This document shows, one piece after another, positions 34,274 through 40,580 of a stretch of 64,000 nt of DNA (within the stretch, counting starts at the first letter, position 1; every line of letters starts with the position of its first letter). A program made the translations under genes and the position numbers. The DNA lies in the NCBI RefSeq assembly GCF_053078305.1, contig NZ_CP166879.1; one strand, 5' to 3'. A model generated the notes under the pieces. The model was not told where the DNA came from and made no database searches. It worked only from the letters and a program-made list of their open reading frames with translations.

Positions 34274-35077
34274 ATGAACGCATTATTAACCAATCCCTTT
34301 AAAGAACGTTTACGCAAGGGCGAAGTGCAAATTGGTCTGTGGTTAAGCTCAACGACTGCCTATATGGCAGAAATTGCCGCTACTTCCGGTTATGACTGGT
34401 TGCTGATTGACGGGGAGCATGCGCCAAACACCATTCAGGATCTTTATCACCAGCTACAGGCGGTAGCCCCCTATGCCAGCCAACCCGTGATCCGTCCGGT
34501 GGAAGGCAGTAAACCGCTGATTAAACAAATCCTGGATATTGGCGCGCAAACTCTACTGATCCCGATGGTCGATACTGCCGATCAGGCACGTCAGGTGGTG
34601 TCTGCCACGCGCTATCCTCCCTACGGTGAGCGTGGTGTCGGGGCCAGTGTGGCACGGGCTGCGCGCTGGGGACGCATTGAGAATTACATGGCGCAAGTTA
34701 ACGATTCACTTTGTCTGTTGGTGCAGGTGGAAAGTAAAACGGCACTGGATAATCTGGACGAAATCCTCGACGTCCAAGGGATTGATGGCGTGTTTATTGG
34801 ACCTGCGGATCTTTCTGCGTCGTTGGGCTACCCGGATAACGCCGGGCACCCGGAAGTGCAGCGAATTATTGAAACCAGTATTCGGCGGATCCGTGCTGCG
34901 GGTAAAGCGGCTGGTTTTCTGGCTGTGGCTCCTGATATGGCGCAGCAATGCCTGGCGTGGGGAGCGAACTTTGTCGCTGTTGGCGTTGACACGATGCTCT
35001 ACAGCGATGCCCTGGATCAACGACTGGCGATGTTTAAATCAGGCAAAAATGGGCCACGCATAAAAGGTAGTTATTGA
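34274..35077 (+). CDS. rhmA: 2-keto-3-deoxy-L-rhamnonate aldolase (HpcH/HpaI family)
   Basis: 267 aa from ATG at 34274 ([24 protein letters not shown]); the track ORF from 33971 is an over-extension. Confidence 0.9.
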
Positions 35078-35117
35078 TATCAAAGGCCCATGGGGATCGG
35101 CTGTGGGCCTGTGTTAA

Positions 35118-35342
35118 TTAGTGGTTATTCGCTGCCAAATCGGCTTCGCTTAGCTGGGTGGCCGCGAGCACCTGGTCACGATCAATGCCCTGTTCCAGCA
35201 TGCGCAAAGCAATTTTAATGGCTTGTTCATGCATACCTTCCTGCAAACCTTCTAATTTACCTTGCTGCAAACCTACTAATTTACCTTCTTGCCAGCCAAT
35301 TTGATGTCCTTCCTGCCGTAGCCGTTCAGCAATAGTCATCAA
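35118..35342 (-). CDS. ypaA: YpaA: stand-alone copy of the Rpn C-terminal domain
   Basis: 74-aa [25 protein letters not shown]...[11 protein letters not shown]... nearly identical to the C-terminus of the adjacent rpnB. Confidence 0.75.
   Translation of the reverse strand: MMTIAERLRQEGHQIGWQEGKLVGLQQGKLEGLQEGMHEQAIKIALRMLEQGIDRDQVLAATQLSEADLAANNH
35241..35288. repeat. 24-bp coding tandem repeat x2 within ypaA (GKLEGLQ units)
   Basis: ctgcaaaccttctaatttaccttg / ctgcaaacctactaatttaccttc. Confidence 0.8.
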
Positions 35343-35351
35343 TCTCTCCTT

Positions 35352-36323
35352 TTAATGACAGTTCGGAATATCAGCATCAGTGAGTTGGGTTGCCGCCAGC
35401 ACAATCTCACGTTCAAAGCCCTGCTCCAGCATGCGCAAGGCAATTTTAATGGCTTGCTCATGCATGCCTTCCTGCAAACCTTCTAATTTACCTTTCTGCA
35501 GACCCTCCAATTTACCTTGCTGCAAACCTTCTAATTTACCTTCCTGCCAGCCAATTTGATGCCCTTCCTGCCTCAGCCGTTCAGCAATAGTCATTAATCT
35601 CTCCTTTTGTAGTGGTGAACGTTCGGCAATCTCCTGAATAAAACGGGTGAAACGGGAGGTATCGCCGCATTGCAGCAGATAATTAAACAGTGTTTGTAGC
35701 TGGCTGTCATTAGTGAAGCCTCTAACCAAAAGCGTGGTGATCCTGTCGACCATACCGATTAAATCGCGGTCGCGAATATGCTTTTGAATCAGTTCAAGCA
35801 GAGCTATACGCCGATGTTGCATGATCTCATCGTCAGGTACGATGGTAATATCCACCAACGGAAAAGCTTCGGTGTACAACTGCCGGGCAAGTTGCGGATC
35901 GTCAAACTCATCCAGCCAGTTGAGTGAGTACGGGTAGGGCGAGGTTTCGCCATGATAAAACAGCAACGGCACCACCAGCGGGACTCTGTCATAGCCTTTG
36001 TCCAGGTGACGCTGCATGGCGGCAGTGGCATAGCGCATTAGCCGAAAAGCCATATTCTTTTCTGCAGAGCTTTGATGTTCAATCACGCAGTAGATATAGC
36101 CGTCACCGTCGCTGGTTTCCACGGACCACAAAACATCCGAGTAGTAAGCGCGTAAACTTTTTTCAATAAAACTAGTGGGTTCCAGGCGTAAGGTTTGCAG
36201 GTTGCAAAGCTTGCGCAGTGGTTCTGGTAAATGTATTTCGAGAAAATCCCGTGCGGTTTCGGGTGTGAACATAAAGGTTTTAAATACTGCATCATGCGGG
36301 GAGGAGGTTGTTGATTCGGTCAT
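35352..36323 (-). CDS. rpnB: recombination-promoting nuclease RpnB (YhgA-like, PD-(D/E)XK, transposase_31 family)
   Basis: Rpn-family N-terminus ([10 protein letters not shown]...), C-terminal repeat domain duplicated in ypaA; exact start not verified. Confidence 0.8.
35472..35543. repeat. 24-bp coding tandem repeat x3 within rpnB 3' region
   Basis: ctgcaaaccttctaatttaccttt / ctgcagaccctccaatttaccttg / ctgcaaaccttctaatttaccttc, encoding [22 protein letters not shown]. Confidence 0.85.
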
Positions 36324-36470
36324 GGTTGTCCGTCACCTGATATTTATGATGACGCGACATTACGGTTATCCCAGGCCTTTGACATCTGCCAGTTTCAGCC
36401 TTTGCGAGACGTTTTCAGAGGAATTTTCACTGCGTTGCAACGCATACATTGGGCACGGAATCGTGTACGC

Positions 36471-36504
36471 AAAAATGCCCGGTAACCACATGCTTACCGG
36501 GCAT
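36471..36504 (-). terminator. rho-independent terminator of glpACB
   Basis: On minus strand: hairpin gcccggtaagcatgtggttaccgggc followed by ttttt, just downstream of glpC stop. Confidence 0.75.
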
Positions 36505-36515
36505 CAGAAAGGAGT

Positions 36516-40580
<4,065 letters not shown>

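Follow-up and report, generated by a model that had tools for sequence, protein, structure and literature searches.

The rpnE (yfaD)-ypaA locus of Escherichia coli is a toxin-antitoxin-like module in which one gene lies within another, and by analogy with RpnC its free-standing downstream product, YpaA, is probably not the antidote of the adjacent full-length nuclease, RpnE_L. The locus was analyzed here in the window, the whole 64,000-nucleotide stretch of contig NZ_CP166879.1 (NCBI RefSeq assembly GCF_053078305.1), and in related genomes. With moderate confidence, we read YpaA as an insulated spare C-terminal module, to which recombination would re-fuse the nuclease domain of its neighbor. 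The arrangement is already known, having been published in 2023, and is nothing new in itself; what is added here is a census of the two-copy form, the mismatch in repeat number within genomes, the assignment of the ancestral tail, and the apparent recurrence of re-fusion.

RpnS proteins, which are made from internal starts, are antitoxins of the full-length Rpn nucleases (Zhong et al., 2023, PNAS 120:e2307382120, PMC10400941). RpnS blocks the toxicity, the SOS induction, and the nuclease activity of RpnL (PMC10400941; PMC10400984), and this neutralization has been shown for RpnA, RpnB, and RpnC (PMC10400941). The idea invoked in the original prediction, made from the letters of the window, that a short C-terminal product antagonizes the toxic full-length nuclease, is correct and published (PMC10400941). 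In K-12, translation from the internal start of rpnE was reported from ribosome profiling and SPA tagging, and an internal promoter in rpnE from dRNA-seq (PMC10400941; 10.1101/520783). The similarity between the RpnE C-terminus and YpaA was already noted by Meydan et al. (2019; 10.1101/520783), and ypaA was subsequently named rpnE_Ss as a second, free-standing, translated copy (PMC10400941). For RpnC with or without one unit, neutralization occurs only with an RpnS of equal repeat number (PMC10400941, Fig. 4D).

Identity and Annotation of the Locus

The upstream gene had been called rpnB in the original prediction, a name that does not hold. It is rpnE (yfaD), according to: (i) its synteny (glpC, rpnE, ypaA, yfaU); (ii) the RefSeq gene name rpnE in syntenic genomes; and (iii) its match to the NCBIfam equivalog NF007418, which is the rpnE model of PGAP (721.7 bits against a cut-off of 583). 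Orthology to rpnB (yfcI) is ruled out by the same evidence, and ypaA was also paired with rpnE by Zhong et al. (2023; PMC10400941). RpnE belongs to the Rpn (YhgA-like) family, as it scores 178.7 bits against TIGR01784 (cut-off 52.1), and its residues 8-209 match Pfam PF04754 (Transposase_31) with an E-value of 8.8e-88. Asp63 and the Glu82-His-Gln84 motif are candidate catalytic residues, read from the sequence alone.

In RefSeq, the product of rpnE is named "ISNCY family transposase" and ypaA is labeled a pseudogene fragment. Neither label fits. ypaA is both conserved and translated. In 5420 of 5426 complete E. coli genomes, glpC and yfaU are the neighbors of rpnE, which is always chromosomal; this fixed position, with no sign of mobility found, does not fit an insertion sequence or ISNCY transposase. 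The sole pair of inverted repeats bracketing the locus is 13 nt long with one mismatch, which is about the chance expectation. Zhong et al. likewise conclude against an insertion-sequence identity (PMC10400941). A search of positions 30-40 kb of the window against Rfam gave no match.

Duplication of the rpnE 3' End and Its Translation Signals

The last 80 codons of rpnE recur, Shine-Dalgarno sequence included, 12 nt past its stop codon as ypaA (Table 1). In a DNA alignment of ypaA with the 3' end of rpnE, the duplicated stretch opens 13 nt upstream of the ATG (AAAAGGAGAGATT), ends at the stop codons, and is interrupted by a single 24-nt gap, and a repeat search returned a 179-nt direct repeat at a spacing of 231 nt. 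Both results uphold the tandem duplication of about 80 residues of the rpn 3' end that the original prediction had described. Its description of ypaA as a near-copy is accurate for the 54-nt head and for the 51 nt that follow the repeats, with about four differences in each (~92-95% identity), and fails for the first 60 nt of the tail, in which there are 23 differences (~60% identity). In the proteins, the first 18 residues of YpaA and RpnE_S are identical and the following helix is nearly so, whereas the last two helices are only ~55% identical.

Table 1. Features of the rpnE-ypaA locus, with positions in the window.
Feature	Position	Strand	Basis
rpnE (yfaD), RpnE_L, 323 aa: N-terminal PD-(D/E)XK-type YhgA-like nuclease domain and C-terminal helical RpnS module	35352..36323	-	ORF, Pfam, NCBIfam, RefSeq name
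Shine-Dalgarno AAGGAGAG for rpnE_S internal start, 5-nt spacing to ATG	35600..35607	-	sequence
rpnE_S, predicted 80-aa product from in-frame internal ATG at codon 244	35352..35594	-	ATG at 35594 preceded by AAAAGGAGAGATTA
rpnE repeat array, six 12-nt units (three 24-nt super-units)	35473..35544	-	Tandem Repeats Finder, sequence
12-nt spacer AAGGAGAGATTG, rpnE stop codon to ypaA ATG	35340..35351	-	sequence
ypaA (rpnE_Ss), free-standing 73-aa RpnS-type ORF	35118..35339	-	ORF list, sequence, fold and profile matches
ypaA repeat array, four 12-nt units	35238..35285	-	Tandem Repeats Finder, sequence
G+C-rich hairpin between convergent yfaU and ypaA, candidate two-way terminator	35084..35110		10-bp stem, 6 G-C pairs

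Upstream of the part of rpnE that encodes the C-terminal domain, a search for an internal start with a ribosome-binding site, as had been suggested, located the ATG of codon 244 with its AAGGAGAG. The same signals stand before the second copy: the TAA stop of rpnE abuts the spacer AAGGAGAGATTG, inside which lies the duplicated Shine-Dalgarno sequence. ypaA therefore has what defines an RpnSs, that is, a downstream ORF with its own start signals that is homologous to the S module of rpnE. A longer frame of 74 aa with a TTG start, on which the original prediction was based, does exist (35118-35342, minus strand), but the likely start of ypaA is the ATG at 35339 and its likely length 73 aa, because AAGGAGAG lies 5 nt upstream of this ATG, and this ATG and the internal rpnE start are homologous. 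More than 100 related loci were examined, and nearly all of them keep the AAGGAGAG of the internal rpnE start; strain E2348/69 (L111/L112) has GGAGAT instead, and an assembly-suspect contig (L093) has ACAGGAGAG. A scan of the locus with the sigma-70 consensus found no convincing promoter, and a relaxed scan gave weak candidates only. Neither a promoter nor a terminator of its own lies in the gap of 12 nt, so YpaA is most likely made from the transcripts that serve RpnE_S.

YpaA as an RpnS-Type Protein

YpaA resembles the published RpnS proteins in sequence, profile, and fold. Its sequence matches RpnA-S (PDB 7th0) with an E-value of 2e-4 over two stretches, one on either side of the repeat insert, and 7th0 is also the best PDB match to its fold (probability 1.0; TM-score 0.76, normalized to the target). 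The AlphaFold model of YpaA, which is of moderate confidence (mean pLDDT 71), places the repeats in a long helix of residues 15-49. YpaA matches positions 244-308 of NCBIfam NF007418, and a precomputed Pfam assignment gives PF27070 (HTH_Rpn_C); direct Pfam-A scans of the C-terminal module with a library that lacks PF27070 yielded only weak Yae1_N matches to the repeat motif. YpaA has two marks of an RpnS, namely the three-helix HTH_Rpn_C module and 4-aa repeats starting 8-20 residues past the initiating Met; in both RpnE_S and YpaA they begin at residue 19.

ypaA is not decaying. Each of the 21 DNA alleles seen, among them that of E. fergusonii, retains an open frame together with its ribosome-binding site and ATG. 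Outside the repeat, 11 polymorphic codons of ypaA have synonymous changes only and 7 have amino-acid changes, in spite of a roughly threefold excess of replacement sites. Together with the detection of YpaA protein in K-12 by SPA tagging (PMC10400941), these observations make it improbable that ypaA is the functionless remnant of a rearrangement at this site, with a frame still open solely on account of its short length, its youth, or the translation signals that it carries. Such a leftover would agree with the PGAP flag "incomplete; missing N-terminus" that ypaA bears in nearly every genome, with the lack of any defence-system match in PADLOC, and with the absence of a separate ypaA from ~42% of E. 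coli genomes, which has no obvious consequence. Repeat changes in ypaA always preserve the frame, which would count against a leftover, yet slippage of a 12-nt unit would do likewise.

Repeat Arrays and Their Mismatch within Genomes

Tandem Repeats Finder reports arrays of period 24 in both copies, with 3.4 copies in rpnE (35467-35547) and 2.5 in ypaA (35234-35292), as well as a period of 12. The 24-bp repeats of the original prediction (three in rpnE and two in ypaA) are thus confirmed as arrays of that period, but the unit that varies is 12 nt, or four residues of a GxxxGxxx pattern, and 24 nt is its super-period. The tract between the residues QE and GMHEQ measures 24 residues in RpnE and 16 in YpaA. 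A comparison of repeat number across strains, also suggested at the outset, found it to be variable: the rpnE array has 0 to 8 units among strains, and the strain-variable counts observed are 0, 1, 2, 3, 4, 5, 6, and 8. Variation of this 4-aa repeat was described by Zhong et al. (PMC10400941).

The two-copy form, as judged by its junction, is present in 3133 of 5426 complete E. coli genomes. Of 59 two-copy loci (26 haplotypes), taken from complete genomes or large contigs, none has equal repeat numbers, and the 21 two-copy genomes of two spread samples were all mismatched. At least 14 different combinations of units occur when all sampled loci are taken together. Matched strains are rare and came from targeted searches: E2348/69 and ECO20 have four units in each copy (4/4), and GDSC2239PM has two (2/2). 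Synthetic queries for matched 0/0 and 1/1 forms gave no clean one-piece match, in a ranking that mixes in multi-piece matches and so does not prove absence. In a scan of metagenomes, the exact junction pattern turned up at only two loci, which are too few for a census.

Active avoidance of matching is rejected, since independent variation in the two slots predicts ~7% matched haplotypes, or about 1.7 of 26. Zero of 26 is therefore not evidence of avoidance; it indicates that matching is not enforced.

The original prediction had proposed YpaA as a trans-acting antagonist of the adjacent nuclease, and the data argue against this. In the window, RpnE has six units and YpaA four, which is not the equality that the RpnC rule asks of a cognate antitoxin. 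Given this mismatch and the rule that only equal numbers pair, YpaA is probably non-cognate to its neighbor. The contrary reading, that YpaA is a working second antidote of RpnE_L which adds antitoxin dosage in trans and for which repeat number is not decisive, appears unlikely to us. It gains from the conserved ypaA ORF, from the identity of the two proteins over the first 18 residues and near-identity over the next helix, and from the position of ypaA 12 nt downstream of rpnE, by which the two are probably co-expressed; moreover, K-12, whose copies are likewise unequal (0 vs. 1 unit), produces YpaA (PMC10400941). Against it stand the unequal repeat numbers in 59 of 59 two-copy loci, the loss of RpnC cross-neutralization on addition of a single unit (PMC10400941, Fig. 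4D), the divergence of the last two helices, and the many E. coli genomes that do without a separate ypaA. The repeat rule has been shown only for RpnC and for one added unit, and RpnE may for this reason tolerate mismatches.

If the mismatch insulates YpaA from its neighbor, YpaA might instead act as an orphan antidote or decoy against incoming plasmid or phage Rpn nucleases of matching repeat number, or against a phage factor that targets RpnS. rpn genes do occur on plasmids and are horizontally mobile, and phage have been proposed to drive the variation of their repeats (PMC10400941). No partner was identified, however, the head and helix sequences of YpaA are specific to RpnE, and the matches of the rpnE-ypaA queries in E. 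coli genomes are all chromosomal, with none on plasmids. We therefore regard such a role as very improbable.

Ancestry of the Tail and Re-Fusion

A single rpnE with a ypaA-type tail is found in E. albertii, E. whittamii, two other Escherichia species, and Phytobacter. As these outgroup species carry a single gene that ends in this way, their sequences show the ypaA-type tail to be the ancestral 3' end of rpnE. Within E. coli, the single-copy allele of O157:H7 (L009) is identical over 729 nt of nuclease-domain sequence to the two-copy allele of the window, and another single-copy allele (L012) is likewise identical in its nuclease domain to a two-copy allele (L008). Single-copy strains thus appear to arise recurrently, with the nuclease domain re-fused to the ypaA module.

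Two other forms of exchange between the copies were considered. Concerted evolution or gene conversion finds no support in the shared 105 nt, as the copies differ by 5.04 nt within genomes and 4.97 between them (permutation fraction 0.69). A swap of identical 5-unit arrays between the slots, (5,0) vs. (0,5), was rejected as evidence, because (0,5) occurs only in non-complete, probably short-read assemblies and because both orders give the same k-mers below the length of the shared flanks, so that the assembler cannot tell them apart.

Proposed Mechanism

From its family membership, RpnE_L would be a DNA endonuclease of the PD-(D/E)XK type. Translation from the ATG at codon 244, led by the internal ribosome-binding site, would yield RpnE_S, a helical protein of 80 aa with the same sequence as the C-terminal domain of RpnE_L. 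RpnE_S may, by analogy with RpnA, RpnB, and RpnC, bind RpnE_L through its long first helix and hold it inactive. The recurrence of the ribosome-binding site and start 12 nt past the rpnE stop would then produce YpaA, of 73 aa. The first helix of RpnE_S and YpaA carries a hypervariable GxxxGxxx tract, which changes in 12-nt steps. The second module was presumably added upstream of the original ypaA-type tail, and YpaA would have become an insulated spare of the C-terminal module. Homologous recombination between the modules may repeatedly delete the internal one and re-fuse the nuclease domain to the ypaA module. A single such step would leave nuclease and antidote self-consistent as a pair, with repeat number and tail both new. 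Since re-fusion by deletion is irreversible, the role of spare module may be a by-product rather than a selected one.

More tentatively, the two-module locus may be a device for diversification, in which YpaA, as the displaced ancestral C-terminal module of rpnE, is functionally uncoupled from its neighbor, is kept translated, and varies independently in repeat number; we find this possible but doubtful. If it is true, recombination between the modules (deletion, perhaps conversion) would give nuclease and antidote a new matched specificity in one step, and the locus would be akin to a system of expressed "cassettes" for the interface of toxin and antitoxin. The locus is in any case a natural test of the published rule of repeat-number specificity. 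If repeat number sets the pairing of RpnS with RpnL, most E. coli strains translate a small protein that is unable to act on the neighboring nuclease, and its purpose then comes into question. Strains with equal numbers, E2348/69, ECO20, and GDSC2239PM, are ready-made controls.

Comparison with Known Systems

The closest relative is the rpnE_L/rpnE_S/rpnE_Ss locus of K-12, which shares with the window the synteny, the codon-244 start with its Shine-Dalgarno sequence, the downstream copy, and the 4-aa tract. In the K-12 allele, RpnE has 0 units and YpaA 1 (299 and 61 aa), in contrast to 6 and 4 in the window (323 and 73 aa). The account of the K-12 locus by Zhong et al. (2023) contains neither a comparison of repeat number between the copies within a genome nor an assignment of the ancestral tail.

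RpnA_L/RpnA_S and RpnC_L/RpnC_S, toxin-antitoxin pairs that have been characterized by experiment, are like rpnE in their N-terminal YhgA-like PD-(D/E)XK domain, in the use of an internal start to make the C-terminal three-helix module as the antidote, and in repeats inserted in helix 1. RpnA_S (crystal structure PDB 7TH0) and YpaA share a stretch of 11 residues. Unlike rpnE, K-12 rpnA has no free copy downstream, and RpnA_S lacks the repeat insert, around which the match to YpaA splits. Toxicity, neutralization, and nuclease activity have been shown for RpnA, RpnB, RpnC, and RpnP2, whereas those of RpnE and YpaA would follow by analogy.

As in classical type II toxin-antitoxin operons, in which orphan antitoxin-like genes also occur, a small protein neutralizes a toxic enzyme by direct binding in the Rpn systems. 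On the other hand, the antidote of rpnE lies in the toxin's own reading frame, the 3' end of the toxin gene is the source of its extra copy, and repeat number would set specificity.

The RpnE tract itself gives weak matches to the Pfam Yae1_N and NCBIfam FliH models. Tracts of G-x-x-x mediate helix-helix association, and in FliH the length of the tract varies between species. Like the GxxxG/AxxxG repeats of FliH and YscL and the deca-GX3 motif of Yae1/Lto1, the RpnE tract is a G-x-x-x run on one face of a helix. These proteins have no homology to RpnE outside the repeat and are not nuclease regulators, so that the resemblance is one of motif only.

Identity of the Locus

The long gene lies between glpC and yfaU, carries the RefSeq name rpnE in every syntenic genome opened, and scores 721.7 bits on the NCBIfam equivalog NF007418 (cut-off 583) vs. 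417 bits on the RpnA model. ypaA is paired with rpnE (yfaD) by both Zhong et al. (2023; PMC10400941) and Meydan et al. (2019; 10.1101/520783). By position, RefSeq name, model score and literature pairing the gene is rpnE, and the name rpnB used in the original prediction has to be dropped; that this is the rpnE-ypaA locus is close to certain. The N-terminal 200 residues of RpnE match Pfam PF04754 (YhgA-like, Transposase_31; E-value 8.8e-88). The RefSeq product name, "ISNCY family transposase," does not fit the evidence, and no sign of rpnE mobility was seen in the loci examined.

Features of the rpnE-ypaA region (positions in the window)
Feature	Position	Strand	Remark
yfaU/rhmA	end at 35077	plus	flanks ypaA side
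G+C-rich hairpin	35084-35110		between convergent genes ypaA and yfaU
ypaA ORF, TTG start	35118-35342	minus	74 aa; mechanical ORF list
Repeat tract, ypaA	35238-35285		G-x-x-x run
rpnE	35352-36323	minus	323-aa ORF
Repeat tract, rpnE	35473-35544		G-x-x-x run
glpC	from 36516	minus	flanks rpnE side

YpaA aligns to positions 244-308 of the NCBIfam rpnE model, has a precomputed Pfam assignment (PF27070, HTH_Rpn_C), and matches the sequence of the RpnA-S crystal structure (PDB 7th0; E-value 2e-4) in two stretches either side of the repeat tract. Its AlphaFold model (mean pLDDT 71) places the repeats within a single long helix spanning residues 15-49, after which come two short ones, and 7th0 is also the best PDB fold match of that model (probability 1.0; TM-score 0.76 normalised to target); RpnA_S is a dimeric three-helix bundle (PMC10400941). 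The tract itself gives weak matches to the Pfam Yae1_N (deca-GX3 motif) and NCBIfam FliH models, which were rejected as homology because they reflect a common G-x-x-x helix motif. They point to a helix-helix contact of the glycine-zipper type, and the tract resembles the variable GxxxG tracts of FliH/YscL.

The Duplicated Module

The rpnE/ypaA duplication is real and well above chance. When the ypaA region is aligned with the rpnE 3' end, the duplication starts 13 nt ahead of the start codon (AAAAGGAGAGATT) and spans the coding sequence up to the stop codons with a single 24-nt gap; a repeat search recovers it as a direct repeat of 179 nt with 231-nt spacing, so that ypaA is, as had been predicted, a near-copy of the adjacent gene's 3' end. 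Starting at the ribosome-binding site and reaching ~50 nt beyond the repeat, rpnE and ypaA are ~92-95% identical, but over the last 60 nt (within 35352-35430 and 35118-35200, respectively) identity is only ~60%. The 54-nt head has four differences, the 51 nt past the repeat four, and the initial 60 nt of the tail 23. This contrast of conserved 5' part and diverged tail was seen in 26/26 haplotypes.

The predicted 24-bp repeats are likewise present in both copies. Tandem Repeats Finder reports period-24 arrays of 3.4 copies in rpnE and 2.5 in ypaA, as well as period-12 arrays in both. Translated in 12-nt steps, rpnE reads ...QIGWQE [[24 protein letters not shown]] GMHEQ..., which is six four-residue units, and ypaA reads ...QIGWQE [[16 protein letters not shown]] GMHEQ..., which is four. 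A 13-nt inverted repeat (35076-35088/36374-36386; GATATCAAAGGCC/GGCCTTTGACATC, one mismatch) flanks the whole module, and is probably meaningless, since chance alone would yield about one pair of this kind in 1.8 kb.

Translation and Transcription Signals

A search of the long gene for an internal start, as originally suggested, found an ATG at codon 244 (35594) with AAGGAGAG upstream at 5-nt spacing. An identical signal precedes ypaA, where the rpnE TAA stop is followed by AAGGAGAGATTG and then an ATG. Because the signal recurs ahead of this ATG (35339), YpaA is most likely a 73-aa protein starting there, and a start at the upstream TTG, which would give the 74-aa ORF, is unlikely. The gap between rpnE and ypaA is 12 nt and contains nothing that could serve as a promoter or terminator, so ypaA would be read from the rpnE_S transcripts (those of the C-terminal product made from the internal start). 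A consensus scan of 35000-36600 found no sigma-70 site, and a relaxed scan gave weak candidates only; the internal rpnE promoter is therefore taken from a published dRNA-seq statement (PMC10400941). The weak candidates, both scoring under the consensus threshold, are AAGGCA-16-TAAAAT (35443-35470, minus strand), which lies inside rpnE_S ~100 nt upstream of ypaA and is also duplicated inside ypaA, and TTACCA-16-GATCAT with a TG extension (35821-35848, minus strand), which precedes the internal start by ~225 nt.

ypaA as a Translated Gene

The rpnE-ypaA arrangement and its general meaning are already known. ypaA (rpnE_Ss) has been described explicitly as a second RpnE_S copy downstream of rpnE (PMC10400941), and the similarity of the RpnE C-terminus and YpaA was noted by Meydan et al. 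(2019; 10.1101/520783). The model put forward in the original prediction, in which a short C-terminal product antagonizes full-length Rpn, is essentially right and published: full-length RpnL is toxic, induces the SOS response and acts as an endonuclease, all of which RpnS blocks, and a plasmid-borne Rpn protects against phages (PMC10400941).

In almost every E. coli genome, PGAP labels ypaA [quoted passage not shown] that is, as a pseudogene fragment, and only one sampled genome (L101, among related loci L001-L017 and L097-L104) has it annotated as a normal CDS. The label does not fit the evidence: all 21 ypaA DNA alleles collected keep the ribosome-binding site, ATG and open frame; outside the repeat, 11 polymorphic codons are synonymous only vs. 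7 with amino-acid changes; E. fergusonii shares the two-copy form, with 5/2 units (RpnE/YpaA); and YpaA has been detected in K-12 by SPA tagging (PMC10400941). The small ORF ypaA is both conserved and translated.

Repeat Number in the Two Copies

Zhong et al. describe the four-residue repeat of helix 1 as highly variable among members of a species, "including RpnSs proteins" (PMC10400941). A comparison across strains, as originally proposed, agrees: both modules were extracted from 114 related loci (two spread samples of complete genomes, look-ups of six YpaA variants, and two outgroup/variant proteins), in which RpnE has 0 to 8 units and YpaA 0 to 6, and YpaA homologs reach 89 aa (8 units) in the protein database. 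At least 14 different unit combinations occur when extracted modules and CDS lengths of all sampled loci are pooled.

Matching of repeat number between RpnE and YpaA is not enforced. Unit numbers were equal in none of 59 two-copy loci (26 distinct haplotypes) from complete genomes or contigs >1 Mb, and all 21 two-copy genomes in the two spread samples were mismatched. There is no evidence of active avoidance, as independent variation of the observed marginal distributions predicts only ~7% matches, or ~1.7 of 26 haplotypes. Targeted searches did find rare matched strains, EPEC E2348/69 and ECO20/21 (4/4) and GDSC2239PM (2/2). Identical 5-unit arrays also seemed to have changed places between the slots, but this was not counted, being confined to non-complete, probably short-read assemblies: three such loci (L069, L070, L080) have (0,5), the mirror of the common (5,0) seen in L011, and the two arrangements would have identical content for k-mers shorter than the ~55-67-nt common flanks, so draft assemblies can misplace repeat arrays here.

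For RpnC, RpnL is neutralized only by RpnS of the same repeat number (PMC10400941), and a commentary likewise reads this experiment as mismatch preventing the RpnL-RpnS complex (PMC10400984). By extension from this paralog, YpaA of the window (4 vs. 6 units) is predicted not to pair with the adjacent RpnE, and the specificity rule as published makes it an unlikely antagonist of that nuclease.

Origin and Re-fusion

Single rpnE genes with a ypaA-type C-terminus (...IDRDLVL...SEADLAA...) occur in E. albertii, E. whittamii, two further Escherichia species and Phytobacter massiliensis. Since these outgroup genes end in this tail, ypaA is the original rpnE 3' end, still in its original place by the downstream hairpin, and the module now within rpnE (...FEREIVL...TDADIPNCH tail) is the newcomer. 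The contrast between the conserved 5' part and the diverged tail could stem from nucleotide-level constraint around the internal start (locally enhanced synonymous-site conservation has been reported in yfaD; Meydan et al., 2019; 10.1101/520783), or from an unequal crossover in which the partner was a diverged allele of foreign origin. Among the 26 haplotypes, the two copies within a genome showed no trace of continuing gene conversion.

RpnSs copies can be lost via deletion or fusion to the rpn N-terminal domain (PMC10400941). In E. coli, the single-copy alleles fall inside two-copy lineages, so the modules have recombined, and re-fusion has taken place, both recently and repeatedly. For instance, the O157:H7 allele L009 (single-copy; 2 units, ypaA-type tail) is identical over 729 nt of nuclease-domain sequence to the two-copy allele of the window, and single-copy L012 is likewise identical to two-copy L008, both having unusual GMR residues. 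Each re-fusion changes the repeat number and tail of the nuclease and its in-frame antidote together. We lean, with some reserve, towards a mechanism in which YpaA would be a spare C-terminal module, insulated but still translated, that remains available for re-fusion to the nuclease domain.

Distribution and Local Variants

Of 5426 complete E. coli genomes, 5420 have the rpnE locus, always on the chromosome. The two-copy form is present in 3133 (58%), as detected with a 92-nt query that is specific to the junction plus the rpnE-type tail, and most remaining genomes have a single rpnE ending in the ypaA-type tail. One complete genome among the 3133 has two junctions of rpnE tail and ribosome-binding site, which suggests a three-module array; three modules on a tiny draft contig (L093) are probably an assembly problem. 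In strain UTME-10 (L018), IS2 cuts rpnE short past the internal start region, and the C-terminal modules are gone. A 5-unit ypaA-like ORF on metagenome contig OEQM01000798.1 (L020) continues into unrelated sequence after ...LEQGI, suggesting an insertion or rearrangement within ypaA. The downstream neighborhood of ypaA is itself polymorphic, as the rhamnonate operon is partly deleted in four loci (L016, L026, L046, L084), with yfaU truncated and a MoCF_biosynth gene adjoining, and is absent from this position in E. fergusonii (L089/L090).
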